Positions 16,986 to 33,465 of a DNA stretch of 64,000 bases are shown piece by piece. Numbering within the stretch: position 1 is the stretch's first letter; each line of letters begins with the position of its first letter. Origin of the DNA: an uncultured Chloroflexia bacterium (GTDB lineage Bacteria; Chloroflexota; Limnocylindria; Limnocylindrales; CSP1-4); contig CAWFXA010000002.1 in assembly GCA_963819655.1 (NCBI GenBank), forward strand, positions 320,001 to 384,000, read 5' to 3'. The notes below the pieces were generated by a model. The model searched no databases and was not told the origin of the DNA. It was given only the letters and a program-made list of their open reading frames with translations. The translations under genes were made by a program, and so were the position numbers.

Positions 16986-17131
16986 CGCTCACCTCCCTCG
17001 CCGGGCTGTCCGTGCGCCGGCGTCTCCGTCGCGGGACCAGATCGCGGACCCGTTTCGCGGCCGTGAACTTCCGGGCGCCAGCCGACCGTCAGGTGCGGTC
17101 GTCGCCACCCATCGCGGCGAGGCCGTCGCCA

Positions 17132-17240
17132 GAGTGTGACGCTCTAACGAGCGTTCTGACCACCGAATCCGCGCTCGGCGCGGCGCATGATAGACCTTCA
17201 CACCAGACGCCGAAGCTCCGGCCGAGTGTGAGCCGGTACG
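17132..17240 (+). repeat. Decayed copy of the module right end (palindromic site plus tRNA-upstream spacer), without tRNA fragment
   Basis: GAGTGTGACGCTCTAACGAGCGTTCTGACC...GAATCCGCGCTCG...TAGACCTTCACACCAGACGCCGAAGCTCC aligns over ~105 bp with 31291-31399. Confidence 0.8.
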
Positions 17241-17251
17241 TCCTGAGCGGG

Positions 17252-17908
17252 CTACGCTCCCGATTCCGGCGGCAGGAGCGCTGCGATCATCTGCTCGGCC
17301 GCCAGCTCTCCGAATCGCTCCGCTGACCACCCTCGGCGAATCACGAGCAGCTCGTACAACTCGGGCGCTGTGTAGGTCCACAAGATGTCGCGGGCATCGT
17401 TGAGGGTCAGTTCAGTGCGGATGTCGCCACGCTCGAAGAGCGTGCGCGCGTTTATCTCCATCCGTCGCAGCCGGAGTTCATCCACCTCTGCGACCAGCTC
17501 GGCCATCCGCACATCCGACGCGGCTGCGGCGCGGATCAGCAGCACGACCGGCGTGACACGCGATGCCACTTCCGTGATGAACCCGCCCCAACCTCGGATG
17601 AGACTTCGTGGGTCGCCCTCGGTGGTGCGGATCGCATCCGAACGTTCCTCCGCGGGAACCGGGCCTGCGCCCTCGAGACTCTCCAGCCAGATCGCACGAA
17701 CGAGTCCAGGCTTCCCGCCGAAGGATTTGTAGATCGTTTCAGGGGAGACGCCCGCTGCAGCTGCGATCGCGCCGATCGTCGTCCCGGCATAACCGTGGTC
17801 GAGAAGGAGGCGACGAGCCGCCTCGAGAATGTCTTGGCGGGTCCTGTCCGCCTGCTGACGGCGTCGCCGAGAGTCGTACCGACGACGGTCCTTGACTGGC
17901 TCTGACAT
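17252..17908 (-). CDS. TetR/AcrR family regulator
   Basis: RRYDSRRRR...GYAGTTIGAIAAAAGVSPETIYKSFGGK; palindrome GTTCCA-N6-TGGAAC at 17911-17928. Confidence 0.92.
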   Translation of the reverse strand: MSEPVKDRRRYDSRRRRQQADRTRQDILEAARRLLLDHGYAGTTIGAIAAAAGVSPETIYKSFGGKPGLVRAIWLESLEGAGPVPAEERSDAIRTTEGDPRSLIRGWGGFITEVASRVTPVVLLIRAAAASDVRMAELVAEVDELRLRRMEINARTLFERGDIRTELTLNDARDILWTYTAPELYELLVIRRGWSAERFGELAAEQMIAALLPPESGA

Positions 17909-18250
17909 TAGTTCCAGTATAGTGGAACGATTACACCACGCTGTACGCGTCCGTGGCCCGGCCCGAGAGTCACCCGCACCTGTGGCCGCGACGTGTCGAT
18001 CACCGCGCTCCAGCCGGTCGACATCACTGAATGCGAGCTCGGCGCCCTACCCGGCGAGGATCTGCTCGCCCTCATCCGCAGCTGGGTCCCCGCGAGCACC
18101 CACGATCTGATCGCGACGAGCGTGCTCCTCCGAGCGCACAAGGCGGCCCAGGCAAGGCTCCCCGGCCACAGCCAGGCATGAGCGGCGAGCTCGTCGCTCG
18201 ACGTCGATGTCGGGCCGGGCACATGCTCGGAGTCCTGCTCCCAGCGCCGC

Positions 18251-21200
18251 TCACCCAGCTGTTCGAGCCACCCGATTGAGGGCAGCGAGCGCCCGTTCGT
18301 CGTCGGCGACCACGGCGACGCTGCCCTTGCGGGTGTCGAGCTCGATGGCCTTGCGGACCGCGGCGATAGCCTCGTCGTGGCGACCTGCGGCCTCCTTGAC
18401 GTCGGCGGCCGCCCGCAGCGTCCAGGCATGGAACGTCAGGAAGTCGGTCGTCTCGAAGTACGCAAGCGCCTCGCTGATGGCTGCGTCGGCCTCTGCGTGC
18501 CGCCCCTCCGCCGCCCTGACTCGGGCGACGGACCCGAGGGCCACCGCCCGGAGCCAGCCGCCGCCCTCAAGACCGCGTGCCGCGGCCGACGCCGCGAGGT
18601 CGCGATCCCCGGCAAGCCAGGCATTGCGGGCCAGGAAACCGGCGAGCATCGCGCTCGGCGCGCCCATCTGGTCCGTCTGCTCGAGGCCGTCCTTCAGTAC
18701 CTCCATCGCGGCGCGCGCATCGCCGGCCACCTGCTCGACGTCGGCCGCCAGCTCGGAGAGGAGCGCACGTGATGCCGCCTGGCCAAGCTCGTCGAGGATC
18801 GCGAGGCACTTGGCCGCTAACTCGCGCGCCTCGTCGAAGCGGCCCAGCCGGGCGACGAGGTGGGCCATCGCGTGCCACATCCAGCTCGCGACGGTCGCGC
18901 TGTCAGGCTCGGCCCGGAGGACCTCCTCGCACCGCCGGATGCCGTCCTCGACGGGCGTCGGGCCGGTGTTGAGGACGGCCGACAACTGAAGGTAGCCCAG
19001 CGCAAGCTCGCGCCGCCGGCCGCCGCGACGCGCGTGTTCGATGGCCCGCATCGCGGCCGCCTCCGCTTCGGCCCCGCGGCCAGCCTCCCAGTGACACGCG
19101 GACAGCAGGTCCCACGCGCGGGCCAGACCGACCTCGTCAGCCGCGTTCTCGAACAGCGCGACCGCCTCGTGGGCATCGGCCTCGGCTCGCTCACGGAGCG
19201 GACCGAGCTCGCTGGCTACCCCCCAGTGCTCGACTTTGGCGTGTGCTTCGAGGCGCCTGTCGCCCGAAGCCCGGGCGCCTTCGACGACATCCTCGAGGAT
19301 GGCGTAGGCGCGCGCCAGCTCACCGGTCTCGCCGAGAGCATCGGCGAGCTCGATGGATAACCACGGACGCTCCGGGTCAAGGAGCGGGAGGAGGGCGACG
19401 GTCCGCTCCAGGAGGTTGACGGCGGCCCGCATGTCGCCTCGCGCGACCGCGCGGTGGGCCGCCGAGCCGAGCCGACTCGCGGCGCGCCCTGCGAGGACGG
19501 CCGAGCGGCCGTCGTCCAGACCGAGCTCGACCCGGTTGCGATGGGCCTGCTCGAAGTGATAGCCGACGATCTCCTCGACCTCCCCCAGCCGATCGCCGGT
19601 GGTCTCCGCCAGCCATTCGGCGAAGCGTTCGTGGAGGGCCGCCCGCTCGGTCTTCGCTACCGAATCGTAGGCGGCGTCACGGATGAGGATGTGGCGGAAG
19701 CGGTACACGCCCTCATCGGCGAGGCGTGGCGACTCCGGCCGGATGAGATCCTTGCGCACCAGCGATGTCAGGCAGCCGGCCACCCGGGGACGCTCGGGCT
19801 CGGGCGAGAGGTGGCTCACCGCTCGGTCCTCGAATACCCGGCCGACGATCGAGGCCCGTTCGGCGACCCCTCGTTCCGTCGGATCGAGCCGGTCGAGGCG
19901 TGCGGCCAGAAGCGCCTGGATGTTCGGCGGGATCGGGATGCGGTCGAGTCCGTCGGCGACCCCCCAGCGCTCCCCGTCCGCCGGCCGGATGAAGCCGCCG
20001 TCGACGAGCATCGCGATGAGCTCCTCGAGGTACAGCGGGTTCCCCTCGGCCGCGTCGCTGATCCGGTTGCGCAAGGAGGCAGGCAGCGCGGCTCCCGGGA
20101 CCAGCTGATCGATCAGGACGGTTGCCGCGGACTCGCCCAGTGGCTCGAGCAGGATGGCCGTGGCGTTCAAGCGGCCGCCGCCCCACATGGGACGATCCTC
20201 GAGCAGTTCCGGACGCGCCGAGGCGATGATCAGGACTGCCGATCCGCGGATGAGATCGGCCAGGTGCTCGATGAGGTCGAGCAGGGTCGGCTCGGCCCAA
20301 TGGATGTCGTCGACGATAAGGACGACCGGTCGATCGATCGCGACCCATTCGACCAGCCGGCGGAGCGCCCAGAAGAGCTCCTCCTGGCGAGCCCGACCGG
20401 GCTCGAGCCCGAGGACCTCGGCCAGCCGGCCAGCGATCAGCCGGTCCTCGGGCGCCTCAGGGAGCAGGGCATCGAGCCGGCCGCGCGCGGCGGCCGCGTC
20501 GTCGGTCTCCTTGATCCCCGCCACGGCCCGGACGATCTCGATGACCGGCCAATAGGTGATGCCCTCGCCGTACGGCAGGCAACGGCCGCGCAGGACCGTG
20601 ACCCCGTCCGGCAGGGCGGCGACGAATTCGCGCACGAGCCGGCTCTTGCCGACCCCGGCGGTGCCGAAGATCGTCAGTAGCTGGGCCGTCCGGACGCCAA
20701 CCGCCCGATCGAACACGCCGCGCAGGACGCCGAGCTCAGCATCGCGGGCGACCATCGGCCCGTCGGGTCGACGCGGCTGGTCATCCGCGCCAGGGCGGAT
20801 CGCGATGAGGCGTGCGACGGGGACCGGCTCGATCCGGCCACGGACGGCGAGTGGATCGAGGACCTCGAGCTCGGCGACCTCGCGGACCAGTCGGGTCGTC
20901 TCCGGCCCGAGCAGGATCTCGTCCGGGGCCGCCGCCTGCTCGAGTCGCGCGGCGACGTTTACGGTGTCGCCGGTGACGAGCGTCGGCAGGTCCGGTCCGA
21001 CACCGGCGACCACCGGACCCGTGCAGATGCCGGTCCGAACCCGTAACTCGCTCCCGCGCTCGGCGTTCAAGGTGACAAGCGCCTCACGCATCGCGACCGC
21101 GGCGCGCGCCGCCCGGATGGCGTCGTCCTCGTGGACGGATGGCACGCCGAAGACGGCCATGATGGCATCGCCGATGAACTTCTCGACGGTCCCGCCATAG

Positions 21201-21433
21201 CGCTCGATGACATCGCGCATCGCGGCGAAGTAGTCGGTCATGACGTGGCGGACGGCCTCGGGATCGAGCCGCTCGCCCATCGCCGTCGATCCGACGACGT
21301 CGGCGAACAGCACCGTGACCGTCTTGCGGACCTCACGCGGACGGGGCTCGTCGACCACCAGGCGGGCGCCGCATTCGAGACAGAACTTCGCCTGCTCCGG
21401 GTTGTGCGCCTCGCAGTTCGGGCATGCCCTCAC
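18251..21433 (-). CDS. Zn-ribbon + class III adenylate/guanylate cyclase + AAA (STAND) + TPR protein
   Basis: CPNC...CLECG, VTVLFADVVGST, KFIGDA, GDTVNVAARL, GTAGVGKSRL, DDIHWA, GNPLY. Confidence 0.9.
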   Translation of the reverse strand: MRACPNCEAHNPEQAKFCLECGARLVVDEPRPREVRKTVTVLFADVVGSTAMGERLDPEAVRHVMTDYFAAMRDVIERYGGTVEKFIGDAIMAVFGVPSVHEDDAIRAARAAVAMREALVTLNAERGSELRVRTGICTGPVVAGVGPDLPTLVTGDTVNVAARLEQAAAPDEILLGPETTRLVREVAELEVLDPLAVRGRIEPVPVARLIAIRPGADDQPRRPDGPMVARDAELGVLRGVFDRAVGVRTAQLLTIFGTAGVGKSRLVREFVAALPDGVTVLRGRCLPYGEGITYWPVIEIVRAVAGIKETDDAAAARGRLDALLPEAPEDRLIAGRLAEVLGLEPGRARQEELFWALRRLVEWVAIDRPVVLIVDDIHWAEPTLLDLIEHLADLIRGSAVLIIASARPELLEDRPMWGGGRLNATAILLEPLGESAATVLIDQLVPGAALPASLRNRISDAAEGNPLYLEELIAMLVDGGFIRPADGERWGVADGLDRIPIPPNIQALLAARLDRLDPTERGVAERASIVGRVFEDRAVSHLSPEPERPRVAGCLTSLVRKDLIRPESPRLADEGVYRFRHILIRDAAYDSVAKTERAALHERFAEWLAETTGDRLGEVEEIVGYHFEQAHRNRVELGLDDGRSAVLAGRAASRLGSAAHRAVARGDMRAAVNLLERTVALLPLLDPERPWLSIELADALGETGELARAYAILEDVVEGARASGDRRLEAHAKVEHWGVASELGPLRERAEADAHEAVALFENAADEVGLARAWDLLSACHWEAGRGAEAEAAAMRAIEHARRGGRRRELALGYLQLSAVLNTGPTPVEDGIRRCEEVLRAEPDSATVASWMWHAMAHLVARLGRFDEARELAAKCLAILDELGQAASRALLSELAADVEQVAGDARAAMEVLKDGLEQTDQMGAPSAMLAGFLARNAWLAGDRDLAASAAARGLEGGGWLRAVALGSVARVRAAEGRHAEADAAISEALAYFETTDFLTFHAWTLRAAADVKEAAGRHDEAIAAVRKAIELDTRKGSVAVVADDERALAALNRVARTAG

Positions 21434-21823
21434 GGGCCGAGTCTAGGCGCGCTGACCGGGCACCGCGCTAGAGGCTTTCATCCCGAGATGTTCGCGTCAG
21501 GGCCTGACGGCCATTGATCTGTCAAAGGAGCTCCCGGCGCAACGTCCCCACCGAGTTGCGAGGAAGCGCGATATGCGCCCGGTAGATCGCCTTATGGCAG
21601 CAGTCAACGACGGTGATCGCGCCGCCTGGGGAGCCTCCTCCGGGTGGTTGTCACGATGAAGAACGGGATCTGCCACGGATTGCTGCCGCCCCACGCATCG
21701 GCCACCCTCGTAGGTGTTCTGGCCGCCGGCGACCGCTCCGAGTCGGCCAATGCCTCGTCGATGTGGACCTCTTCTTCGACCGTGCCGCCCGCGTCCTCGT
21801 CGAGTTCGAACGGATCGTCGCCA

Positions 21824-21888
21824 GACCGCCTGAGCGTTGTGGCCACCCGAGTGGGACCCCGAGCGAAACGGGTGGAGTTTTACGCTCT
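21824..21888 (+). repeat. Module left-end repeat, copy 1
   Basis: GACCGCCTGAGCGTTGTGGCCACCCGAGTGGGACCCCGAGCGAAACGGG (49 bp, identical to 27222-27270) then TG-GAGTTTTACGCTCT. Confidence 0.95.
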
Positions 21889-22462
21889 AGGATTCCTGCT
21901 CGGCCGTGCGCAGTAGGGCCAGGGCGTTCTGGATGCCCTGCTCCAGGACCTCGTCGGCAAGCTTCTGATCGGACAGGGCGCGGGAGACCTGGAGCGTCCC
22001 GACCATCAGGGCGAAGACGCTGAGGGTCCTGACGCGCGCTGATTGGGGATCTTCCGCTGCCAATCGGGCGGCAGCGTCATCGATGATCGCCAGCTGCCCA
22101 TCGGTGTAGGCGCGCTTCACGGCGTCGGACGAGCGGGCGATCTCGTCGAGGAGCGCGGCCGATGGACAGCCGCCCTCGGTGTCGTCGCGGTGCTGAGGCG
22201 ACAGATAGCCGCTAACGATTTCCTCGAGCGACTGCGTGCTGTATCGCTCGCGCTGCTCGCGGAGCTGGTCCGCGACCGTGCTCGCGACGAGATCCTCCTT
22301 CGAGTCGAAGTGGGCGTAGAAGGCGCCGTTGGTCAGCCCGGCGTCGGCCATGAGCGTCGCCACCCCGGAGCCATCGATGCCGTCGCGCTTGAGCCGACGG
22401 CCTGCCGCCTCGATGATCCGCCCCCGCGTCGCCTGCTTGTGCTCTTTCCCGTACCGCGCCAT
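21887..22462 (-). CDS. TetR/AcrR family regulator
   Basis: GIDGSGVATLMADAGLTNGAFYAHFDSKE, HRD..EGGCP. Confidence 0.92.
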   Translation of the reverse strand: MARYGKEHKQATRGRIIEAAGRRLKRDGIDGSGVATLMADAGLTNGAFYAHFDSKEDLVASTVADQLREQRERYSTQSLEEIVSGYLSPQHRDDTEGGCPSAALLDEIARSSDAVKRAYTDGQLAIIDDAAARLAAEDPQSARVRTLSVFALMVGTLQVSRALSDQKLADEVLEQGIQNALALLRTAEQES

Positions 22463-22564
22463 CTGCGACTCCCTCATTGGGAAGGGTTCGTCCTTCCTCT
22501 TGACATCCATTATATGTCATGCGTAATATTACGACCATCAGCCAATTAGCGCAAGGAGTCCACG

Positions 22565-23380
22565 ATGACATCAGCCAAGCCAGTCGCGCTCGTGACGGGC
22601 GCCTCCTCCGGCATCGGGAATGCAGCCGCCCTCGCCCTCGTCACGGCCGGTTTCGAGGTGGTCGGCACGAGCCGGAAGACGTCCGGCGTCGCTCCAGTCG
22701 ACGGCGTCACGTTCCTCGACCTCGACGTGACCAGTGACGAGTCGGTTAGCTCGGCGGTCGGGCGCGTGATCGAGCGGTTCGGGCGGCTCGACGTGCTGGT
22801 CAACAACGCGGGCATCGGGGCAGCCGGGGCCGCCGAAGAAAGCTCCGTCGCCCAGGACCAGCGCGTCTTCGATATCAACTTCTTCGGGCTCGTCCGAATG
22901 ACGAAAGCGGTCCTCCCGCACATGCGCGCGGCCGGAAGGGGTCGGATTATCAGCATCTCCTCGGTGCTCGGGCTCGTCCCCGCTCCGTACATGGCCAGTT
23001 ACGCCGCCACCAAGCACGCGATCGAGGGCTACTCCGAGTCGGTCGACCACGAGGTTCGGGAGCACGGCATCCGCGTGCTTCTCGTCGAGCCCGGCTACAC
23101 GCGGACCGGCTTCGACGCCAACGCCATCCAGCCCGACGCACCGTTGCCGATCTACGCGCTGCAGCGGCACGTCTTCGACGGGGTGTTGGCGCGAGGCATG
23201 GCAGACGGCGATGACCCGGCCATCGTCGCCAAGGCGATCGTCGCGGCGGCGACGGACCCGAAGCCGAAGCTGCGCTACACCGCCGGCCCGGCGGCCGGAC
23301 GCGTCAGCGTCCTGCGCCGCTTCGTTCCCACGCGGGTCTTCGACCGGCAGATCCGGAAGCTCAACCGCCTGCCCGCCTGA
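22565..23380 (+). CDS. Short-chain dehydrogenase/reductase
   Basis: TGASSGIG, NNAG, YAATK. Confidence 0.93.
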   Translation: MTSAKPVALVTGASSGIGNAAALALVTAGFEVVGTSRKTSGVAPVDGVTFLDLDVTSDESVSSAVGRVIERFGRLDVLVNNAGIGAAGAAEESSVAQDQRVFDINFFGLVRMTKAVLPHMRAAGRGRIISISSVLGLVPAPYMASYAATKHAIEGYSESVDHEVREHGIRVLLVEPGYTRTGFDANAIQPDAPLPIYALQRHVFDGVLARGMADGDDPAIVAKAIVAAATDPKPKLRYTAGPAAGRVSVLRRFVPTRVFDRQIRKLNRLPA

Positions 23381-23417
23381 AGCCAATCCTCAATCAGCCA
23401 TACCAAGGAGACCCGTC

Positions 23418-24278
23418 ATGAGCACCATGAGCATCGACCCCGTCATCACGTCCTACGCGATGGCGCCGGCCCTCACCATCACCGCAGGCGACGCGACCTA
23501 CGCCTATCGCGAGCTCGGACCGAAGGGCGGGATCCCCGTGATCCTCTTTGTCCACCTTGCTGCGACCCTCGACAACTGGGACCCGCGCATCGTCGACCCC
23601 ATCGCCAGAGAGCACCATGTCATCGCATTCGACAACCGCGGCGTCGGCGCCTCCACCGGCCAGGTTCCCGACAGCGTCGAAGCGATGGCCGACGACGCCT
23701 ACGCCTTCATCCGCGCGCTCGGCTTCGACGAGGTCGACATCTTCGCCTTCTCCCTCGGCGGCTTCGTCGCCCAGGCTCTCGTGATCAAGCACCCGGATCT
23801 GGTCCGCAAGTTGGTCCTCACCGGGACCGGCCCTGCCGGAGGGAAGGACATCGACAAGGTCGCCGGCATCACCTACTGGGACATGTTGCGCGCGGCCCTG
23901 ACCCGGTCGGACCCGAAGGAGTTCCTGTTCTTCAACCGCAACGCCACCGGCAAGCCCGCCGCCCGCGCCTTCGTCAACCGACTCACGGAGCGCACCGTCG
24001 ACCGGGACGCCGCGATCTCGGTGAAGGCTTTCCAGACCCAGCTCAAGGCGATCAAGAAGTGGGGTCGCTCGGCCCCTGCCGACCTGTCGAAGGTCACCCA
24101 GCCCACCTTGATCGCCAACGGCGACAACGACCGGATGGTGCCCTCCGTGCTATCCGAGGACCTGCACCGCCGCATCCGCGGCTCCGAGCTCGTGATCTAC
24201 CCCGACTCCGGCCACGGCGGCATCTTCCAGTTCCACGACACCTTCGTCCCGGTCGCCGTCGAGTTCCTCGACCGCTGA
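23418..24278 (+). CDS. Alpha/beta hydrolase
   Basis: RBS AAGGAG; FDNRGVGAS, AFSLGG, GDND, DSGHGGIFQ. Confidence 0.88.
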   Translation: MSTMSIDPVITSYAMAPALTITAGDATYAYRELGPKGGIPVILFVHLAATLDNWDPRIVDPIAREHHVIAFDNRGVGASTGQVPDSVEAMADDAYAFIRALGFDEVDIFAFSLGGFVAQALVIKHPDLVRKLVLTGTGPAGGKDIDKVAGITYWDMLRAALTRSDPKEFLFFNRNATGKPAARAFVNRLTERTVDRDAAISVKAFQTQLKAIKKWGRSAPADLSKVTQPTLIANGDNDRMVPSVLSEDLHRRIRGSELVIYPDSGHGGIFQFHDTFVPVAVEFLDR

Positions 24279-24305
24279 CCGCACCCTACGAAGGAAGGCA
24301 AGAAG

Positions 24306-25100
24306 GTGGCTACGACACGTCAAGCGGCGAAGAAGCCCCTCGTCTCATCGATCCTGCTGTGGATGCGGACCGATCAGCCCCGTCAGCAAGGCATGGACTA
24401 CTGGAAGGGCCCGCACTCGAAGATCATCTCCGCGACGCCGGGGATGGAGGAGTACCGCCAGATCCATCTGGCGGAGAACAATCCCGGGCTGTGGCCCGCC
24501 ATCCGCGGCGTCGAAACGGTCATCCCCGCCAACCGCCGGATCGACGGGGTCGCCGAGGTCACGTTCACGTCCGTTCTCTCCCCGCTGCGGGGCCGCAAGC
24601 AGACCGGGCTCGCGTACAAGGATGAGGTGAACGTGTTCCGGCGCACCCTGCTCTACGCGGGGCTACCGAACTCGGCCCGCTGGTACAACGTGGCCGGTCC
24701 CGGTGAGAAGGCGGGAGCGCGAAGCCTGATCTACCTCCGCAGGCGGGAAGGCGTCAAGACCGGTGCGTTCCGGAGGTTTCTCACGGACGAGCTTGTTCCC
24801 GCTCTCGTCAAGACAGGAGCCCTGCGGGAACTCCGAACCCAGGTCTTCATGCCCTGGATCAAGAGACTCTGGGACACCCCGAACGTCGCGCACGACAACC
24901 CCGCTGACCAGCGGTTCCAGGCCTCACTGGTCCTCGGCTTCACCGATACCAACGCCCTGTGGACGTTCTTCCGTGGCGGAGAGGTCGCCTCGCTTTCAAG
25001 CAAGTTGCCCGAGTTCGTTTCCGCCGTCCACGCCTACGAGGTCACCGAAGCGCTGACCTACGTGAAGGACGGCAAGATCCTCCCGCACAATCAGACGTAA
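24306..25100 (+). CDS. EthD-like (dimeric alpha/beta barrel) protein
   Basis: YWKGPHS...PGMEEYRQIH...IDGVAEVTF...DE; co-transcribed with SDR and hydrolase. Confidence 0.6.
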   Translation: MATTRQAAKKPLVSSILLWMRTDQPRQQGMDYWKGPHSKIISATPGMEEYRQIHLAENNPGLWPAIRGVETVIPANRRIDGVAEVTFTSVLSPLRGRKQTGLAYKDEVNVFRRTLLYAGLPNSARWYNVAGPGEKAGARSLIYLRRREGVKTGAFRRFLTDELVPALVKTGALRELRTQVFMPWIKRLWDTPNVAHDNPADQRFQASLVLGFTDTNALWTFFRGGEVASLSSKLPEFVSAVHAYEVTEALTYVKDGKILPHNQT

Positions 25101-25167
25101 CGGCGCGCCCCGGTCCCGAGCTCCGGGCCACGACGCACGGTGCGATCAGGTGGAGTGCCGGTCATCG

Positions 25168-26011
25168 TCAGGCCTCCGCCACGTCGAGCGAGACGAAGCG
25201 CTCGCGGTTGAAGTCGATGTCGGCCTGCAGGTCGGCGACCTTCTGCTCGGTGGAAGCGATCGAGTCGGCGCCGGCGATGAACCGGCGTCGCGGCGGCTCC
25301 TCGCTGGCGATCGTCACGAGCGCCTGGGCGAGCTTGGCCGGGTCGCCTGACTGGCGGCCATTCTGGGAGGTCCACCAGTCGATCTGGGCAGCGCGTCGCT
25401 CGGCGTAGTCGTCGATCGACAGTTGGGCGAAGTTCGTCGACTCAGGCGTCAGCAGCTCGGTCCGGAAGAAGCCGGGATTGACGATCGTGGTGTGGATGCC
25501 GAACGGCTGCGACCTCCGGCCGCAACGACTCCATCCAGCCCTCGATCCCGAACTTGGACGCCGCGTAGGCCGTCCCGAACTCGAAGCCGGAAAGCCCCGC
25601 GCTCGAGGAGATCGTGATGACGTGACCGGATCGCTGCCGGCGCATCACGGGCAGGACGGCGCGGGTGACGTTCATCGGGCCGATGAGCGTCGTCGCGAGC
25701 TGGCGCTCCATCTGCTCCGGCGTCAGCTCCTCGAAGAAGCCGGCGTTGAAGTTGCCGGCGTTGTTGACGAGGACATCGATCCGCCCGAATCGCTCGACCG
25801 CGGCCTGGACCGCGGCCAAGGCGTCGGCGGGGCTGGTCACGTCGAGCCTCACGGCGAGCAGGTCGGCAGGGTCGCCGACCGCCTTCGTCACCGCCTCAGG
25901 GTTGCGGCCCGTCGCGACCACGGAATTGCTGGCGGCCAGCGCGGCCTTGGCGATGTCGACGCCCATGCCGCGCCCGGCACCCGTGATGAACCAGACCTTC
26001 CTTTCGGTCAT
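25168..26011 (-). CDS. Short-chain dehydrogenase/reductase (frameshift near 25505)
   Basis: WFITGAGRGMG, NNAG, YAASKF; C-terminal GDPAKLAQAL...RRFIAGAD lies in a shifted frame. Confidence 0.85.
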
Positions 26012-26149
26012 CGGAAATCTCCTTTACGTGGTGGTTTGACCTTCTGCGGGCCATCCAACCACCCGCCATCCCGGTCGGAAAGGCACGCGTTATCGGGGTA
26101 TTGCTGATGCCTGCCTACCAGCGCACGAGGGGCGTAGGGTGGGCGTGAC

Positions 26150-27032
26150 GTGAGCAGCGCCGACGAGATCCGCGAGTTCCTGACGACGCGCCGGGCGAAG
26201 CTGTCCCCCGAGCGCGCCAGCGTGCCGAGGTATGGCCGCAAGCGGCGAGTGCCCGGCCTGCGGCGCGAAGAGGTCGCCCTCCGCGCCGGGATCAGCGTCG
26301 AGTGGTACACGCGCCTGGAGCGCGGCGTCGCGCGGGGCGTCTCCGATGAAGTCCTCGACGCCATCGGCAGCGCGCTCCAGCTCGACGAGGCCGAGCGCGC
26401 CCACCTCGCGGATCTCGTGCGCACCGCGAACGCGGAGCGGCCGCCACGACGAACCTCGACCCCGCAGGGCGTGCGTCCGAGCCTCGCCCGGCATCGTCGA
26501 TGTGATGGGCCCGATCCCGTCCTGCGTGACGAACGGTCGGCTCGACGTCCTCTACGCGAACGATCTCGCGGAGGCGCTCTTCTCGGATGTCTTCCGTGAC
26601 CCCGTCCGCCCGCCCAACTTCGCCCGCTTCGTGTTCCTCGATCCACGAGCGAGGACGTTCTACCGCGACTGGGAGAAAGCTGCCAATGACACCGTCGCAG
26701 TGCTGCGCGCGGCGGCCGGCCGGGACCCGTACGACCGCAGCCTGTCCGACCTGGTCGGGCAGCTCTCGACGCGGAGCGACGAGTTCCGGGTCCGCTGGGC
26801 GGCGCACGATGTCGCGTTCCATCGCACGGCCACCAAGCACATGCACCATCCGCTCGTGGGCGACCTGACCCTCGCCTTCGAGATGCTCGAGCTCCCAGCC
26901 GATCCGGGGCTGTCGGTGCTCATCTACTCCGCCGAGCCCGGCTCACCGTCTGAAGAGGCCATGCGCGAGCTGGCGCGCTGGAGCGAGACGCGGACCAAGC
27001 TCTCGGCAGCTCGGGCCGGATCCGAGACCTGA
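26150..27032 (+). CDS. XRE-family HTH regulator with MmyB-like ligand domain (frameshift near 26490)
   Basis: RRVPGLRREEVA...WYTRLERG, then PNFARFVFLDP...FRVRWAAHDV...HPLVGDLTL. Confidence 0.88.
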
Positions 27033-27063
27033 CCCAGCACGCCGGGCCATCTCGATGCCCGCA

Positions 27064-27180
27064 GAGTTTTACGCTCTAGGAGCGATGTGGCGGCCAAGGC
27101 GTGTGGGCAATGCCTCGGAATAGACCTACAAACCAAAGCCGACGGTCGAGCCGCGCTCAGCAGGTATCATCGCGGTCCGC
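27064..27180 (+). repeat. Module right end: palindromic site plus spacer plus -10 box (TATCAT 27165-27170)
   Basis: GAGTTTTACGCTCTAGGAGCGATGTGGC...TAGACCTACAAACCAAAGCCGACGGTC...GGTATCAT, homologous to 31291-31409. Confidence 0.85.
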
Positions 27181-27220
27181 GCGCCTGTAGCTCAGGGGAT
27201 AGAGCGTCGCCTCCGGAGCC
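27181..27220 (+). pseudogene. 5' half of tRNA-Arg(CCG) (displaced fragment, att-like)
   Basis: GCGCCTGTAGCTCAGGGGATAGAGCGTCG-CCTCCGGAGCC versus tRNA 31410-31450 (1 substitution, 1 deletion); stops 3 nt after the anticodon loop. Confidence 0.9.
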
Positions 27221-27221
27221 T

Positions 27222-27286
27222 GACCGCCTGAGCGTTGTGGCCACCCGAGTGGGACCCCGAGCGAAACGGGCTGAGTCTTACGCTCT
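27222..27286 (+). repeat. Module left-end repeat, copy 2
   Basis: 49 bp identical to 21824-21872, then CT-GAGTCTTACGCTCT. Confidence 0.95.
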
Positions 27287-27328
27287 GTGCGGAAGACCAC
27301 GGTGCAAGGAGTGGGCTCGCGCTCGGCT

Positions 27329-29614
27329 TCAAGGCGCTCGTCCTCGGTCTGCGAGCGAGTAGAGCCGGATGACTCCATCGCGTCCGGTCGTGTATGCGTC
27401 GCCATTGGGCCCGATCACAGCCAGCTCGAGGCCGCGTCCTGACCACGATGAGATGAGGTCACCAGTGGGGGCGAACAGGTGCAGCCGATCGGGCCCGTCC
27501 GTCGCGTACAGTTCGCCATTCGGCCCGGAAGCAAGCAGCACCGGCTCGCGCAGAAGACCCTCTCCGATCTGTCGGACGATCGTGCCGTCCGGGGCGATCA
27601 CCGTGATCCTCCAGGGTGCCCCGCGACCGCCACTGGCGAAATAGACCGTTCCGTCGGGACCCACGACCACGTTGTTCGTGCACCGATCCCTGACGTCCGC
27701 GCCTCCCGCCAATGTCCGAACGTAGTTGCCTGATTGTTCGAAAACCTGGATCCGGCACGTGGGGTCGTCAACCACATAGACGAGCCCGTCCGGGCCAACA
27801 CTGATGCCGAAGGGACTGACGAACTGGCCGGGCCCTGACCCGAAGGTTCCCCATGACCCGATCATCTCTCGGTCGGCATCGAAGTGCACGACCCGCTGGT
27901 GCTCCGAATCGGCAATGAAGAAGCCGCCATCCGGGAGGAAGGCAACTGCACCCCAGCCATCCCGGTCGGGCTGGACGAGGGCGAGGGCGGCATCACCGGT
28001 CGGCTGCCATGTTTCGACGACTCCTCCGTCACGACCGACGATCACGAACCGGGCACGTGTGGGGTCGGCGATCCACAGCCGCCCGTCTGGTGCGCCGTTC
28101 AGGAAGAACGGCCCCTCGATCCCAAGATCTCGGGCCGTGCGGGCCCACACCTCAACGAGTGCAACGGTCGAGGTGATGATGTGCGCCGACGACGATGGGC
28201 GCTCGGCCGTCGCACTGGAAGCGACCCCTGCGGTGGGCGACGGACTGCTGGCACGAGCTTCGGCGGCGGTCAGCGCGTACACACTCCCATCCTGTGTTCC
28301 AACGATCAGGTGCGCGCCGGCGACTGCGGGCGAGAAGGGGATGCCGTCGAGTAGGAAGGTCCCGAGGACGTCGCCGGTGGCCGCCTCGAGGGCCTCGATC
28401 CCCCCGTGCGAGGCGAGGTACAGCACTCCACCAGCCTTGGTCGGCGATGAGCCGACCTGAACGCCGAGGCTTCGTGTCCATATCTCGGCACCGTCGTCGG
28501 CCCGGAGCGCGACCACGTCGCCGTCGACCGCGGCTGCGTAGACGGTCCCCGTCTCGGGGTCGACGACCGGAGCGACGACTGTCTGTCCGTTTGGCCGCCG
28601 GTGACGCCATATCCCACGGCCGGATTCGAGATCGACCGCGTAGAGAACGCCGCGATTCCCTTCGAGATCAAGGCCTGCGAGCAGGACCTTCTCGCCAGCG
28701 ATGACGGGTGTATCGGTGAAGACCGGCGTCGCAAAGCGCCACAACTCGCGTGCGGTTGGGGAGTCGAAGGCCACGGCGATCCCGACATCGGTCGGGACGA
28801 CGAGGATCGAACCCTGGACCGCGATCGACCGCGTCGAGGGCCCCGGCAGGTCTTCCTGCCAGACGACCTCGTGCGTTTCGAGATCGATGGCCAGAACCTT
28901 GCCGGTCGCGCCCGGGACGGGTCGTCCACGGGACTGTGCCGAAGAGGTCGAGACGTACAGCCGGTCGCCGACGATCGCCGGACTACCGGCAGCGTAGCCA
29001 TCGAGCGGTATTTGCCAGGCGACATGGCCAGTCCGTCGATCCACGGCGACGAGATCCCGATCCTCCGTCCCGACGATCACCAACTCACCGGCCACAGAAG
29101 GCGACGACCAGGCAACGTTCAGATCGGACGACCACAGCTGGACGTGGCGTCGGAGGTCGAACGCTCGGAACTGGCCATCGATCGCTCCCACGTAGGCGAC
29201 GCCGTCCACGATCGCCGCCGACGATACGATCGGACCGGAGAGCGTCGTCTGGAAGTCGATGGTCATGGCCCCACCGGGTCCGGGCCCCGTTACCACGCCG
29301 GTCCTTGCCGCGTCACCGCGGAACGTCGAGCTGTCCGACAGGGGCTCCGATCTCCGGAGGAGCTGGGCGCCCACCGCGGCGATGCCGGCCAAGAGCGACA
29401 TCAGGAGGAGGGCGGTCATCGCCAGCCGGACGGGTCGCGGCAATGCGACGACCTTCGCCATGATCCGGCTTTCGAGCGGGGCGGGCTGCTGCGGGGTGAG
29501 GCGGACCGCGGCCGCGATGGAGTCGCGCAGATCTGCAGGTGCCAGCGTCGCCTGGGGCAGTGCCAGAGATCGGTTCAGCAGCTCCCGTGTCAACGGCGGA
29601 AGGTTCCGGCTCAT
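27329..29614 (-). CDS. Single-TM protein with PQQ-like and NHL beta-propellers (putative anti-sigma factor)
   Basis: Start overlaps the ECF stop; TM segment; FRGDAARTG, repeated SSP/W motifs; WGTFGSGPGQFVSPFGISVGPDG. Confidence 0.8.
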   Translation of the reverse strand: MSRNLPPLTRELLNRSLALPQATLAPADLRDSIAAAVRLTPQQPAPLESRIMAKVVALPRPVRLAMTALLLMSLLAGIAAVGAQLLRRSEPLSDSSTFRGDAARTGVVTGPGPGGAMTIDFQTTLSGPIVSSAAIVDGVAYVGAIDGQFRAFDLRRHVQLWSSDLNVAWSSPSVAGELVIVGTEDRDLVAVDRRTGHVAWQIPLDGYAAGSPAIVGDRLYVSTSSAQSRGRPVPGATGKVLAIDLETHEVVWQEDLPGPSTRSIAVQGSILVVPTDVGIAVAFDSPTARELWRFATPVFTDTPVIAGEKVLLAGLDLEGNRGVLYAVDLESGRGIWRHRRPNGQTVVAPVVDPETGTVYAAAVDGDVVALRADDGAEIWTRSLGVQVGSSPTKAGGVLYLASHGGIEALEAATGDVLGTFLLDGIPFSPAVAGAHLIVGTQDGSVYALTAAEARASSPSPTAGVASSATAERPSSSAHIITSTVALVEVWARTARDLGIEGPFFLNGAPDGRLWIADPTRARFVIVGRDGGVVETWQPTGDAALALVQPDRDGWGAVAFLPDGGFFIADSEHQRVVHFDADREMIGSWGTFGSGPGQFVSPFGISVGPDGLVYVVDDPTCRIQVFEQSGNYVRTLAGGADVRDRCTNNVVVGPDGTVYFASGGRGAPWRITVIAPDGTIVRQIGEGLLREPVLLASGPNGELYATDGPDRLHLFAPTGDLISSWSGRGLELAVIGPNGDAYTTGRDGVIRLYSLADRGRAP

Positions 29615-30183
29615 TCCGACACCTCCCGGAGCGCCTTCGCGAGGGCTCGGCGCGCACTGAAGAGACGCCACATGACCGTCCCCGAAGGGACGCGAAGGAG
29701 ATTCGCGATCTCGGCGACCGGTCGGCCTTCGCCGTGATGCAAGGCGAGCACGGTTCGCTGGTCGCCGGACAACCGGCCGAATGCCTGGCGGACGATGTCC
29801 TCGTCGGCCAGCGCTTCGAGAGGCGACTGGCTTGTCGGATGGTCGGCCGGAAGCGAGAGCTCCTCGATCGGGATCTCCCGGACCCGGGCCTTTCGGCGCC
29901 GGAGCAGCATCCGGCACTCGTTCACGACGATCCGATCGAGCCACGCATCGAAGCGCGCGACATCACGGAGTCGAGGGAGTTCTCGCCAGGCTGCCAAGAA
30001 CGCCTCCTGGCATGCGTCGCGGGCGTCCCATTCAGTTCGCAGGATGGCCAGAGCCGTGCGATAGGCTCGGTCGAGCCGAGCGTCGATCAACCGTTCGAAT
30101 GCCTGCACATCGCCGGCGCGGGCCAACTCGACGAGCGAGGCGTCGCTCGTCGAGCCGACCGAGGTGCTCGCGTGTGCCGTCAT
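29611..30183 (-). CDS. ECF RNA polymerase sigma factor
   Basis: DASLVELARAGDVQAF, DACQEAFLAAW, WLDRIVVN, EIANLLRVPSGTVMWRL. Confidence 0.92.
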   Translation of the reverse strand: MTAHASTSVGSTSDASLVELARAGDVQAFERLIDARLDRAYRTALAILRTEWDARDACQEAFLAAWRELPRLRDVARFDAWLDRIVVNECRMLLRRRKARVREIPIEELSLPADHPTSQSPLEALADEDIVRQAFGRLSGDQRTVLALHHGEGRPVAEIANLLRVPSGTVMWRLFSARRALAKALREVSE

Positions 30184-30244
30184 CGGGTTGCAGTGTGCCC
30201 TCGACGGACGGGTCAGCCGGCGAACAATGGGCAGAGAGCGGAGG

Positions 30245-31105
30245 TCATGGCAACTCCAACAGTCCGGCGACGGCAGGCCATGTGATCTCTGCGACCTCCG
30301 CCTGTCCGCGCACGTTCAGGTGGTTCCGATCGCTGGAGAAATCCTCGGGGCGTTCAATGTACGCGGCGCGAGCTCCGTCGTCCGTCCGGCAATTGGGCAC
30401 CGTGGCGCACACCCGGGCCTGCTCCGTCTCATATTTCTCGATGATGGATGTCAGGGTGTCGGAAGGGTCAGGGTCGCACAGCATCCACGAAGGGGGTCGT
30501 CCGAGCTGTCCGACCACCAGGATCCGTGAGTCGGGTGAGGCCGTGGTTACGACCTGCAAGGCGTCTGCGAGGGCGACACCGAACTCGGGTACGTGCGTGC
30601 GATCGGTCCCGTCGCAGCGGATGTCGCTGTCGATCGTTTGGACTACGACGAGTGCCGGGGTGGGAACAGTTTCGAGAGCGGATCGCGCCTGCCCCGCCAG
30701 CGAAGACGCGGGCGCACCACCTTGCGCAGTGTTGGCAACATGGCCCTCGGTCTCCGGACGGACCGCGACGAGCCGCCGGTAGATGCTGTTGACCTCAGGC
30801 GATGTGCCAGTCGCCCACGAGTTTTCGAGCGCAACCCGACCAGGACGGCTCGGATCGGAGTTCTCACCAGTCAAGCCGGAGTGCCCGATCGCTATGACAC
30901 CGACCGGCTTGCCGGGGTTGGCCGCGGTCGCGGTCGATGTGGCGGCCGGGCCGGCCGCGGCCGATGTGGTAGCCGGGCCGGTCGCGGCCGATGTGGTGGC
31001 CGGGCCGGTCGCGGCCTGGTCTCCGATGTCTGCACTGCGGCAGCCACTGACCGCCAACGCCAAGGCGATGATGGCGGCCACGGTGCCAGCTGATCTTGTG
31101 TTCAT
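30245..31105 (-). CDS. SGNH/GDSL-like hydrolase lipoprotein
   Basis: Lipobox VSGC; AIGHSGLTG, NSWATG, DRNHLNVRGQ. Confidence 0.7.
   Translation of the reverse strand: MNTRSAGTVAAIIALALAVSGCRSADIGDQAATGPATTSAATGPATTSAAAGPAATSTATAANPGKPVGVIAIGHSGLTGENSDPSRPGRVALENSWATGTSPEVNSIYRRLVAVRPETEGHVANTAQGGAPASSLAGQARSALETVPTPALVVVQTIDSDIRCDGTDRTHVPEFGVALADALQVVTTASPDSRILVVGQLGRPPSWMLCDPDPSDTLTSIIEKYETEQARVCATVPNCRTDDGARAAYIERPEDFSSDRNHLNVRGQAEVAEITWPAVAGLLELP
30926..31016. repeat. 27-bp tandem repeat (about 3.3 copies) encoding an AATGPATTS linker
   Basis: GGTCGCGGYCGATGTGGYRGCCGGGCC repeated in frame within the lipoprotein gene. Confidence 0.85.
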
Positions 31106-31290
31106 GATGTGCTCCGGGGTAGTCCGGATGTGCATCCTTTGCCTCCTGATCGGGTCTCTGCATTCGCAGAGTTCCTTCAGAAGTCCAGATGCGAGGGAGC
31201 ACCGATCCATTTGGCGCTCCTCTGTAAGAAACACGTGCGCCGAGTTGTCGCCGTACGTGCTCCCTCCGCTCGGACCGTTCGGCCGCCGGC

Positions 31291-31409
31291 GAGTTTTACG
31301 CTCTACGAGCGTTGTGGCCGCGGAATCCGTGCTCGCCGCAGCGGCAAGGTAGACCTTCGAACCACAGGCCGAAGGTCCATCCAAGCTCGGCGGGTATGAT
31401 CAGCGCCTC
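31291..31409 (+). repeat. Module right end: 29-bp palindromic site plus spacer plus tRNA promoter (-10 TATGAT 31395-31400)
   Basis: GAGTTTTACGCTC-TAC-GAGCGTTGTGGCC (31291-31319); GACCTTCG/CGAAGGTC inverted repeat 31352-31377. Confidence 0.85.
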
Positions 31410-31485
31410 GCGCCTGTAGCTCAGTGGATAGAGCGTCGGCCTCCGGAGCCGAAGGTCGCAGGTTCGAATCCTGTCGGGCGCGCCA
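31410..31485 (+). tRNA. tRNA-Arg (CCG)
   Basis: GCGCCTGTAGCTCAGTGGATAGAGCGTCGGCCTCCGGAGCCGAAGGTCGCAGGTTCGAATCCTGTCGGGCGCGCCA: 76 nt, CT-CCG-GA loop, CCA end. Confidence 0.97.
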
Positions 31486-31576
31486 GTTCAACCTTTTCGG
31501 GCAGAGCCAGCGCCAATCCGTGCGCGTAGGCCGCCTGAGTCAGCCGGACACCCACGATCTCGGGTGCCAGCGACCG

Positions 31577-32239: not shown

Positions 32240-32249
32240 GCGGAACCTC

Positions 32250-33249: not shown

Positions 33250-33465
33250 TCGACCCGGACGCGAAGCAGGTGCGTGCTGTCCACGACCGTCACGCCTGCC
33301 GCCTCGACGCAGCGAGCCACTCATCCCGCCCCTCGATCGGGATCGTGTAGGTTGCAGCCAAGCGCCCCACACCTGTCGGGCGCGCCAGTACGAATGTTCT
33401 CGACCATCGAGCGATCGGTCGGCCTGACTCGGCCCAGAGAGTGAGAGAGAAGCGACTTCCGGCGC

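Follow-up and report, generated by a model that had tools for sequence, protein, structure and literature searches.

Integrase-less modules with shared ends, stacked on the 5′ side of a tRNA-Arg(CCG) gene in a soil Candidatus Limnocylindrales genome

In integrons and CALINs, small units that vary in cargo and share their ends form arrays, and new units enter at one fixed end. Integron arrays can lack a genomic integrase, and the integron integrase forms a Xer-like branch. CIMEs and the tandem accretion of integrative elements have reportedly been discussed for streptococcal ICE and IME families. In Dehalococcoides, by the account in PMC3146451, 15 integrase-less islands lie in tandem at ssrA, and the gene of a serine integrase, DsiB, overlaps the 3′ end of the RNA gene. 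Recombination at the 5′ part of a tRNA gene is described as “considerably less frequent” in PMC6563490, where single cases are cited, including Zhao and Williams 2002 and others. For the tycheposons of Prochlorococcus, the preprint gives 937 elements that carry an integrase, 910 of them a tyrosine recombinase, the remaining ones a large serine recombinase (bioRxiv 10.1101/2020.12.28.424599).

The locus considered here lies in a stretch of 64,000 nucleotides from an uncultured soil Chloroflexota bacterium (GCA_963819655.1, contig CAWFXA010000002.1, positions 320,001 to 384,000), referred to as the window. Limnocylindria are an abundant, uncultured lineage of soil and freshwater. Almost nothing is known about gene movement in them, and a literature search on Limnocylindria integrases found nothing relevant; the locus shows a concrete route. 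Two modules, M2 and M3, and a decayed third, M1, are stacked 5′ of tRNA-Arg(CCG), the sole gene with that anticodon in the genome (Table 1).

Table 1. Positions of modules, ends and tRNA-associated features in the window.
Feature	Position	Strand	Remarks
RE0, decayed right end	17132..17250	+	14-mer with 2 mismatches, spacer box present; promoter, tRNA half and next left end all gone
M1 cargo	17252..21822	-	TetR 17252-17908 (Pfam); unassigned ORF 17908-18429
M1 adenylate cyclase-AAA-TPR protein	18251-21433	-	Pfam
M2 left end	21823..21888	+	66 nt; no tRNA half before it
M2 cargo	21887..27060	mixed	Pfam
M2 TetR	21887-22510	-	Pfam
M2 SDR	22565-23380	+	Pfam
M2 alpha/beta hydrolase ORF	23211-24278	+	Pfam
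M2 ORF without Pfam family	24306-25100	+	
M2 second SDR	25442-26011	-	Pfam
M2 MmyB-type regulator	26232-27032	+	Pfam
M2 right end	27061..27180	+	motif A 27064-27077; motif B-like 27079-27092; TATCAT 27165-27170
Partial tRNA-Arg(CCG) 5′ half	27181..27220	+	matches tRNA through anticodon loop, one G deleted
M3 left end	27221..27286	+	66 nt; cross-genus conservation ends directly after ...ACGCTCTA
M3 cargo	27329..31287	-	Pfam
M3 beta-propeller (PQQ/NHL) protein ORF	27329-29944	-	Pfam
M3 ECF sigma factor	29611-30183	-	Pfam
M3 ORF with weak GDSL match	30245-31384	-	Pfam
M3 right end	31288..31409	+	motif A 31291-31304; motif B 31307-31319; TATGAT 31395-31400
Intact tRNA-Arg(CCG)	31410..31485	+	5′ half apparently brought by M3
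Large serine recombinase remnant, 49 codons	31424..31570	-	88% identity to residues 451-499
3′-side island	31486-33371		1.9 kb
16-nt direct repeat of tRNA 3′ end, exact	33372..33387	+	far boundary of 3′ island

An initial annotation had claimed that M2 and M3 share both ends around unrelated cargo, which the end coordinates and the Pfam assignments bear out. The left ends, called identical over 49 bp, are shared but agree at 48 of 49 bases (the first base differs), and then continue as GAGT(T/C)TTACGCTCT. The reported right-end site, GAGTTTTACGCTCTA(C/G)GAGCG(T/A)TGTGGC, was found at 27064 and 31291, with its decayed copy at 17132. Right ends said to close on a tRNA 5′ half do so at the M2/M3 junction, but not at the M1/M2 junction, which has no tRNA half. 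When up to 9 mismatches are allowed, the 3.49-Mb genome has the 49-mer in just two places, the left ends of M2 and M3, and the 14-mer (up to 2 mismatches) occurs seven times, five of them in the tRNA-Arg(CCG) locus and all of those on the + strand; the ends are therefore beyond chance. A 16-mer scan of genome contigs returned at least 119 matches, mostly unrelated and at the level expected by chance.

In each module, some 230 bp are att DNA, with a putative promoter region and one half of a tRNA gene among them. The attP-type region joins two parts. One is the right end, with 14-mer A, motif B, a −10-like hexamer and the tRNA 5′ half; the other is the 66-nt left end, which runs from motif B to 14-mer A. 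The right end of M3 is the upstream region of the working tRNA-Arg(CCG) gene and may supply its promoter. The “−10 box” of the initial annotation is a conserved hexamer, TATGAT or TATCAT, which in almost every copy lies about 10-15 nt 5′ of the start of the tRNA, but a consensus sigma-70 promoter scan of the right ends called no site. Structured RNA or DNA at the ends was considered and rejected: folding gave z-scores of +0.37 for the tRNA half together with the left end as RNA and −1.5 for the right end as DNA, a candidate stem in the left end showed no compensatory changes by eye in 47 aligned junctions, and an Rfam search found the tRNA and no other structured RNA. The left-end core had 0 matches in viral contigs, the att region had none in phages, and among plasmids only its tRNA part matched, in 4 records.

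The cargo was largely as first described. In M2, Pfam recovered the TetR and the two SDR proteins, the alpha/beta hydrolase and a regulator of MmyB type, but the supposed EthD protein found no support, the ORFs at 24306-25100 and 25091-25375 matching no Pfam family at E ≤ 0.1. In M3, the ECF sigma factor stood, the SGNH lipoprotein corresponds to a weak GDSL match, and the putative anti-sigma factor is a beta-propeller protein by Pfam. M1 keeps only remnants, its own right end and tRNA half being absent. RE0 is also present in G446, the closest relative, at 82% identity.

In related Ca. Limnocylindrales genomes, at least 14 in number, and on 26 metagenome contigs, the same ends enclose unrelated cargo, as expected of the proposed family, whose members would share att-type ends and swap cargo. 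The arrays differ between relatives at tRNA-Arg(CCG) in module number, order and content, another point on which the initial annotation was right. For example, there is one module in G024, two in G004, four in G270 and at least four in G360, and a hand count found two or more copies of the 5′ half in 52 of 401 family genomes. G446 matches 17963-21624 of the window at 96.6%, and there a partial tRNA half and then a left end come next; the order is M1, a 4.4-kb module absent from the window, and a shorter M2 (common to both only across 21820-25105, at 94%), with no M3. Tallies of 308/401, 68/151, 15/151 and 93/251 take in the unpublished genomes G140, G250, G257 and G409; none of our conclusions depends on these four alone. 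Across modules, the cargo families include sigma factors, STAND/LuxR and TetR regulators, hydrolases, transporters and PIN toxins. The figures from this Pfam survey of module ORFs are for the 25 commonest of 91 families, so an odd single recombinase might hide among the ORFs.

The junctions have a regular anatomy. Of the 22 partial 5′ halves in the loci of the 14 related genomes, 21 run straight into the same 66-nt left end and one is degenerate, and conservation stops exactly at the cargo (47 distinct junction sequences). In these genomes, as in the window, the partial half and the intact tRNA gene stand at opposite ends of an element. The half between M2 and M3 would be the one displaced when M3 inserted. 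In 7 of 14 arrays, the most tRNA-distal half has no motif A within 160 nt upstream, as would be expected of the original chromosomal half.

The modules are devoid of recombinases as far as our searches reach. A tblastn search with 7 recombinases against 54 module sequences gave no true match, the Pfam integrase model, run on the genomes holding 10 arrays, found none inside an array, and the module ORFs of the window matched no Pfam recombinase. PF00589 had no match within the window and PF00239 none anywhere in its genome. The earlier statement that the window encodes no recombinase holds for intact genes, but not for the serine recombinase remnant discussed below.

The full-length, integrase-bearing element between the same ends that the initial annotation had envisaged exists in a genome of the same genus (G426, contig C81). 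There, a partial half and left end are followed by 27.7 kb, the integrase gene, two copies of motif A and motif B, and the intact tRNA. The integrase is a short, Xer-like tyrosine recombinase of 330 aa (PF00589 positions 2-171, E 4.8e-31) with a SAM-like N-terminal domain and no recognised arm-binding domain; its gene lies about 130 nt upstream of the tRNA, with transcription pointing away. It scores below the cut-offs of all NCBIfam XerC, XerD and XerA models. In two genomes of other genera (G084 and G066), an integrase with 90-92% amino acid identity and the same intergenic motifs adjoin the tRNA. Integrase-bearing members at tRNA-Arg(CCG) are rare (4 of 251 genomes, plus G426). Among the best 27 loci of the integrase family, in a survey covering loci other than L263 and L269 of the unpublished genomes, a tRNA is present in 24 and the integrase is divergent from the tRNA 5′ end in 23, at a spacing of 95-301 nt; the tRNAs are of six types and five identities (Gly, Met, Lys, Arg, His). 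In G367, a second tyrosine integrase is encoded a little way downstream of the tRNA; it was rejected as the module enzyme. Of 10 loci with its homologues, 7 are at tRNA-Gln(CTG), the C-terminal half of the protein seems scrambled, and no remnant of it was found in 24 other sequences.

We read the locus as an accretion array of non-autonomous, CIME-like modules derived from reverse-orientation integrative elements of Ca. Limnocylindrales, and we give this reading a probability of roughly 70%. Recombination between element and tRNA gene would take place in the anticodon-loop region of the latter and, in contrast to what most tRNA-targeting elements do, would exchange its 5′ half. Integration would strand the old 5′ half before the left end, and the tRNA would be rebuilt from the upstream region and 5′ half of the element itself. 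Because the site is regenerated, the next element could enter and push older ones away from the tRNA. In autonomous members, the gene of the Xer-like integrase adjoins the right end and points away from the tRNA, and catalysis would be the work of an enzyme of the G426 type. M2 and M3 possess the ends and lack an integrase, and M1 has only remnants left; such modules may have lost their integrase or, more likely for the small and widely shared ones, may be mobilised in trans by the integrase of some autonomous member. With the att-type ends of the G426 element and no recombinase of their own, the modules are CIME-like by sequence.

The main competitor is that each module arrived as an autonomous element and then lost its integrase by deletion, so that nothing moved in trans and the array is a graveyard. 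The distribution of modules speaks against this. Small modules, integrase-less and with intact ends, recur in several species-level genomes; versions of one of about 1.6 kb are present in G367, G381, G360, L038 and L055, with 800-1340 bp in common at 87-99%. Array order also conflicts, since module 1 of G270 resembles module 3 of G360 (95.9% over 2296 bp), yet module 3 of G270 resembles module 2 of G360. In addition, module 4 of G270 and module 1 of L041 are 99.4% identical over 2170 bp, the two genomes representing different species. The same modules in different genomes and in a different order are indirect signs of movement by a related integrase. Decay has nevertheless left its mark. The integrase-bearing unit is the tRNA-proximal one in five of five loci (G426, G084, G066, G236 and G172), which fits decay of the older elements, the ends of M1 and RE0 are decayed, and the genome of the window has no cognate integrase, its closest match being a Xer-like protein only 32% identical. 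Consequently, the array in this genome is probably frozen. On balance, we consider loss without movement in trans an unlikely account of the family.

The 3′ side of the tRNA has a separate island. The serine recombinase remnant, whose 3′ end runs antisense through tRNA-Arg(CCG), belongs to it and not to the modules. The 16-nt repeat bounds islands that start with a serine recombinase gene or remnant in the window, G446, G100 and L101, and a conserved near-palindromic GCGCGCCCAACA precedes it. Relatives hold intact genes and repeats. The full-length protein has about 500 aa (Pfam Resolvase, E 3e-10 to 8e-12), and its gene, preceded by a 62-aa ORF without a Pfam or NCBIfam family, overlaps the tRNA in many genomes. 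It matches the CcrB and XisF models weakly; an AlphaFold model had a mean pLDDT of 56, phmmer against the PDB found nothing, and a profile gave one weak match (3g13_A, E 9e-4). On its 3′ side only, the locus shares with the ssrA islands and with SCC elements and their CcrAB a serine recombinase over the 3′ end of an RNA gene, a far short repeat, a T-loop junction and tandem islands. By the account in PMC3146451, it differs in its target, a tRNA and not tmRNA or rlmH, and in the 62-aa ORF, which stands where a second serine recombinase would.

A resident large serine recombinase of this kind at the tRNA 3′ end could in principle insert the 5′ modules, as an integron-like serine system. The gene adjoins and overlaps the tRNA in many genomes, its C-terminal 161 residues are matched in 68 of 151 genomes, and by hand tally in 12 of 16 genomes with several 5′ halves against 56 of 135 others; on metagenome contig L101, an intact copy stands next to modules that are well formed. 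However, the 3′-side islands bounded by the 16-nt repeat explain the gene better, the layout is that given for DsiB at the Dehalococcoides ssrA islands in PMC3146451, a tyrosine integrase sits between module-type ends, and the module junction is at the anticodon stem-loop and not the T-loop. We therefore set this enzyme aside as the platform recombinase and regard such a role as very improbable. Equally hard to credit is a reshuffling of modules mainly by homologous recombination at the conserved junctions of ~230 bp, as might happen once foreign DNA has been taken up, with site-specific recombination only for founding events: each junction offers about 110 bp of near-identical sequence in direct orientation (tRNA half and left end), and the M1/M2 junction of the window is imprecise, but right-end spacers are only 59-82% identical between modules, junctions are base-precise in 21 of 22, and an integrase with the same ends exists.

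The preferred reading, an accretion array of CIME-like modules, places the locus among known systems. As in CIMEs and tandem accretion, integrase-less units bounded by the att sites of an integrase-bearing relative, and carrying accessory cargo, are stacked at one gene. As far as the published descriptions go, the units here differ in lying on the 5′ side of the target gene, with about 120 nt of upstream region and 40 nt of tRNA each, and in greatly outnumbering autonomous members in the genomes searched. Elements at the 5′ part of tRNA genes share the partial copy of the 5′ part and the intact gene at the other end, an arrangement in which the element must supply the upstream region of the gene. 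Here, beyond the cases those sources cite, a whole integrase family (23 of 24 tRNA loci) is involved, with arrays of integrase-less derivatives. The initial annotation had not recognised the arrangement as one already described, but both tandem integrase-less accretion and recombination at the tRNA 5′ part appear in the accounts already in print (PMC3146451, PMC6563490). Tycheposons likewise are cargo elements at few tRNA genes, sometimes in tandem with partial tRNAs between them, forming genomic islands and commonly leaving remnants; measured against the preprint's account, the modules here lack an integrase and have the reversed orientation to the tRNA (bioRxiv 10.1101/2020.12.28.424599).

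The comparison to integrons was also drawn at the outset, and in anatomy it does not hold. Arrays with shared ends, a fixed entry end, arrays without an integrase and a Xer-like integrase are common to both. However, no integrase is fixed beside the array as a platform enzyme, and in relatives it lies inside the mobile unit. There is no folded site of attC type with its hairpins, the units are multi-gene with their own regulators, and integron-integrase NCBIfam models stay far below their cut-offs (64.6 bits for a cut-off of 265, 35.2 bits for one of 435).

Gene acquisition targeted to a tRNA takes a rare, “reversed” form at this locus, and the integrase family is systematic in its use of the 5′ side of tRNA genes, a side rarely seen in this role. 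If mobilisation in trans holds, this would be a natural cassette system with a short, defined attachment region and a small integrase, and a test case for how an essential single-copy tRNA gene copes with having its promoter region and 5′ half replaced again and again. A bolder extension, which we hold only tentatively and at less than even odds, is that soil Ca. Limnocylindrales maintain a tRNA-gene cassette economy in which a Xer-like integrase family comes into tRNA genes from the 5′ side and integrase-less cassettes are inserted, excised and passed between genera by few autonomous members. Were that true, most circulating units would be minimal cassettes with some 230 bp of att DNA and one or several genes for regulators, enzymes or toxins, and the site would never wear out, since each cassette restores the tRNA gene together with its promoter region. 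It would be a functional parallel of the integron that arose along another path and works at several tRNAs (Arg, Val, Gly, Met, Lys, His). For annotators, half-tRNA fragments 5′ of tRNA genes can serve as marks of island boundaries.

Read data were uninformative about movement. Soil and rhizosphere runs contain 0.30-0.50 of the sampled words, and Logan contigs from 4 runs demonstrated no excision product, circle junction or empty site. Joints from 27205 to 31453-31457 had other letters in between and came from other tRNAs. A contig in X1 that joins 17234 to 31393 was unusable as an empty site: its shorter side has 33 letters and the joint falls between two homologous right ends.

The design recurs elsewhere in the genome of the window, where tRNA-Val(GAC) has a 5′-half repeat 4.2 kb upstream, with its own repeated 10-mer in both ends.

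The modules stacked on the 5' side of tRNA-Arg(CCG) agree in the features tested with non-autonomous elements of the CIME type in an accretion array. They failed on the tested features of integrons, and the anatomy does not support the integron-like platform proposed in the initial annotation. The window's genome (3.49 Mb, 69% G+C, three contigs) carries 50 tRNA genes, and the anticodon CCG is served by a single one. The right-end site is found ~120 nt upstream of both the partial tRNA copy and the intact gene, and the left end contains both right-end motifs in swapped order: GAGCGTTGTGGCC, 37 nt, GAGT(T/C)TTACGCTCT. A whole-genome search with the 49-mer of the left end returned two sites, both of them these left ends, while the 14-mer shared by the ends (motif A; its companion is motif B) occurred seven times with ≤2 mismatches, five of the seven in this locus, all on the plus strand.

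Features of the window and of contig C81 of the related genome G426
Sequence	Feature	Position	Strand	Remarks
Window	Right-end site, decayed copy (RE0)	17132		
Window	Second left-end copy	21823-21888		without tRNA half in front
Window	Right-end site GAGTTTTACGCTCTA-N-GAGCG(T/A)TGTGGC	27064 and 31291		
Window	Partial tRNA copy	27181-27220		first 40 nt, through anticodon loop, one G absent
Window	Left end, 66 nt	27221-27286		directly 3' of partial tRNA copy
Window	tRNA-Arg(CCG)	31410-31485		intact
Window	Large serine recombinase remnant	31424-31570	minus	49 codons; directly after tRNA, overlaps tRNA 3' end
Window	Exact 16-nt repeat of tRNA 3' end	33372-33387	plus	1.9 kb downstream
G426:C81	Half + left end	19		
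G426:C81	5.9-kb module			between the two half + left end copies
G426:C81	Half + left end	5871		
G426:C81	27.7-kb stretch			corrinoid-methyltransferase-type gene set and IS elements
G426:C81	Integrase gene	32534-33526	minus	330 aa

The ends belong to a family of modules that is spread across related Candidatus Limnocylindrales. Of the family's 401 genomes, 308 contained a 34-nt piece of the tRNA 5' half (≤2 mismatches), and ~52 had two or more copies by hand count, often on the same contig and strand and a few kb apart. At loci from 14 genomes, the left end directly followed the partial half in 21 of 22 cases, and the same junction pattern was seen in 26 metagenome contigs. The left end was present in 4 of 36 sampled genomes of the window's genus and in none of 24 from a neighbouring family. 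An exact scan for the junction in one genome per prokaryote species gave 29 stretches, every one in a record whose title names Chloroflexota, Chloroflexia or Candidatus Limnocylindrales MAGs. When 47 distinct junction sequences were aligned, the 66-nt left end proved nearly invariant across genera, with similarity stopping exactly at ...ACGCTCTA. Arrays held one module in G024, two in G004, four in G270 and at least four in G360; number and content vary among relatives. In 7 of 14 arrays motif A was absent upstream of the most distal copy, as expected of the original chromosomal half. An assembly artefact is ruled out, since such arrays were seen in many genomes assembled independently, one of them a chromosome in a single contig (G198).

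Turnover is evident between close relatives. The DNA flanking the array on either side is collinear between genome G446 and the window (80-92% identity upstream, 96.6% downstream). In G446 the array starts with the decayed right end RE0, the decayed module M1 (96.6%) and a partial half with left end, continues with a 4.4-kb module lacking in the window and another half with left end, and closes with the first 3.3 kb of M2 (94%), a different right end and the tRNA. Neither M3 nor the last 2 kb of M2 is present in this array. Modules also recur in conflicting order: the first module of G270 resembles the third of G360 (95.9% over 2296 bp), and the third of G270 resembles the second of G360. Between genomes representing two different species, one module reaches 99.4% identity over 2170 bp. 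Separately, the initial TetR gene of M1 (window 17237-17962) is missing from the otherwise 97% identical M1 of G446, a 726-bp insertion or deletion in an old module. Synteny with G024 ends at window position 8501, and window 10329-10925 matches G024 DNA 7.5 kb downstream of that genome's tRNA-Arg; the variable 5' zone may therefore be larger than the array, with older, fully decayed modules in 8501-17132.

The cargo first assigned to the modules held up apart from three points: 'EthD' and the anti-sigma function were unsupported, and the GDSL match was weak. Among 127 module ORFs, tallied for the commonest 25 of 91 Pfam families, the leading entries were ECF sigma regions (7), AAA_16 (6), LuxR-type GerE (6), PD40 (5), TetR (5) and PIN (4). 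Within the ORF that gave the weak GDSL match, a 27-nt unit occurs as three tandem copies, which are 87-92% alike (window 30925-31016).

That the modules encode no recombinase was borne out. Searching 54 module sequences (some represented twice) by tblastn with one serine and six tyrosine recombinases gave no true match, and the Pfam integrase model found nothing within any array of 10 array-bearing genomes; its match in G367 was one gene just downstream of the tRNA. In a second integrase search, covering five genomes rich in 5'-half copies, a tyrosine recombinase catalytic domain lay ~550 nt from a tRNA 5' half in G426, G084 and G172. G426 is of the same genus as the window's genome, and its contig C81 carries an integrase gene between the same ends. 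The encoded protein matches PF00589 (positions 2-171, E 4.8e-31) and has a SAM-like N-terminal domain. Some 30 nt beyond the gene come GAGTTTTACGCTCTAC, a B-like motif, a second GGGTTTTGCGCTCTA and then the intact tRNA. G084 and G066, of other genera, have the same integrase beside the tRNA (90-92% amino acid, ~85% nucleotide identity) with the same intergenic motifs. The full-length element predicted in the initial annotation therefore exists. Two more lineages of the integrase, with 60% and 57% identity, occupy this tRNA too, and their versions of the motifs have diverged. No cognate integrase is encoded in the window's genome, where the best match is a Xer-like protein with 32% identity.

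Stranded halves break off in the anticodon stem, within its 3' strand (...CTCCGGAGCC|TGACC), and the left end nearly rebuilds that stem, with GCCTGA in place of GCCGA. The two sides therefore share the anticodon stem-loop as their core, the classic site class of tyrosine integrases. The conserved DNA, ~230 bp long, is bounded by one motif A ~165 nt ahead of the junction and another 53-66 nt past it, and in size and layout it corresponds to an attP with distal accessory sites. Integration would place the element's upstream region and 5' half before the chromosomal 3' half, which would leave the tRNA whole and renew the insertion site. These steps follow from the anatomy; we infer catalysis by the integrase, a role for motifs A and B, and promoter supply. 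The candidate promoter part in the right end is a -10-like hexamer and nothing more, and a promoter scan of right ends was negative. Fold z-scores and the junction alignment gave no sign of ends acting as folded strands. Mobilisation of the modules in trans is plausible. In most copies, an inverted tRNA D-arm/anticodon-stem segment, GAAGCCGA(A/C)GCTCTATCCAC, precedes the hexamer (window ~31360-31385 and 27130-27155); it is also seen in some apparently native upstream regions. Inverted motif A (TAGAGCGTAAAAC) likewise lies upstream of the hexamer in many copies.

The modules show the reversed tRNA orientation (5' part), described as much less frequent in PMC6563490. Homologues of the integrase (E ≤ 1e-40) occurred in 93 of 251 family genomes. 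We scanned the 27 best loci, leaving out two from unpublished genomes; a tRNA gene was present in 24, and in 23 of these the integrase was divergent from the tRNA 5' end, 95-301 nt from the match edge. Targets were Gly(TCC), Met(CAT), Lys(TTT/CTT), Arg(CCG) and His(GTG). Among NCBIfam models, the integrase resembles XerC, XerD and XerA, far under every cut-off. What is new is the scale, with the reversed habit extending to a whole integrase family and several tRNAs of an uncultured soil lineage, and the dominance of integrase-less units at tRNA-Arg(CCG): against the ~52 of 401 genomes with several 5' halves, integrase at this tRNA was found in 4 of 251 plus G426. Among the open-access papers searched, we found no description of such a system in this lineage.

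Outside the window but in the same genome, the 5' half of tRNA-Val(GAC) (G000:C3:494406-498652) is repeated 4.2 kb upstream of the gene. Both ends share a 10-mer, GCCGTGCTAG, that differs from the motif at tRNA-Arg(CCG), and the unit is the genome's second integrase-less module with reversed orientation. Conventional 3'-half repeats occur there at tRNA-Gln(CTG) and tRNA-Thr(CGT). For tRNA-Gln(CTG) (G000:C3:3292-3366), three exact 35-nt repeats at C1:9063, 25331 and 31515 adjoin a frameshifted tyrosine integrase; for tRNA-Thr(CGT) (G000:C2:721870-738753), a single repeat is separated from the gene by 16.8 kb that include two integrase genes.

The recombinase remnant and the 16-nt repeat mark an additional island system, of the T-loop type, 3' of tRNA-Arg(CCG), and the use of one tRNA gene from its two sides by two recombinase classes is also new. 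In the window, the 1.9-kb island up to the repeat holds the remnant together with genes for a TetR regulator and an SRPBCC-type cyclase and an unassigned ORF. Islands in G446, G100, G367 and the metagenome contig L101 likewise end at this repeat, with GCGCGCCCAACA ahead of it. Full-length serine recombinase genes (~500 aa, Pfam Resolvase; XisF and CcrB matches weak) abut the tRNA in G093, G154, G144, G069, G112, G188, G207 and L101, running antisense through it and stopping in the D-loop. At all eight intact loci the stop of a conserved upstream ORF of ~62 aa overlaps the start codon of the recombinase gene (e.g., L080:8789-8974, plus strand). This ORF carries the motif RDPLVAALARYVEALHRRYPDGP, matched no Pfam or NCBIfam family and may be an accessory or directionality factor. 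The layout is that reported for Dehalococcoides ssrA islands in PMC3146451: the gene of their serine integrase, DsiB, overlaps attL in every case, the islands insert in the T-loop and carry a 20-bp repeat, and 15 of them lack an integration module. Given the islands bounded by the 16-nt repeat and this DsiB-like layout, we attribute the serine recombinase to the islands on the 3' side rather than to the 5' modules. In G367, the interval from tRNA-Arg(CCG) to the 16-nt repeat is a 3.75-kb island made up of a tyrosine integrase of the tRNA-Gln-type family (L024:8802-9878, C-terminal half garbled) and a gene for a HipA kinase. In G198 (locus L022), the 5' side has two extra copies of the 16-nt repeat, located 1333 and 11666 nt upstream when counted from the tRNA 3' end; one of them is inside the tRNA-adjacent module, and the same unrelated flank follows each.
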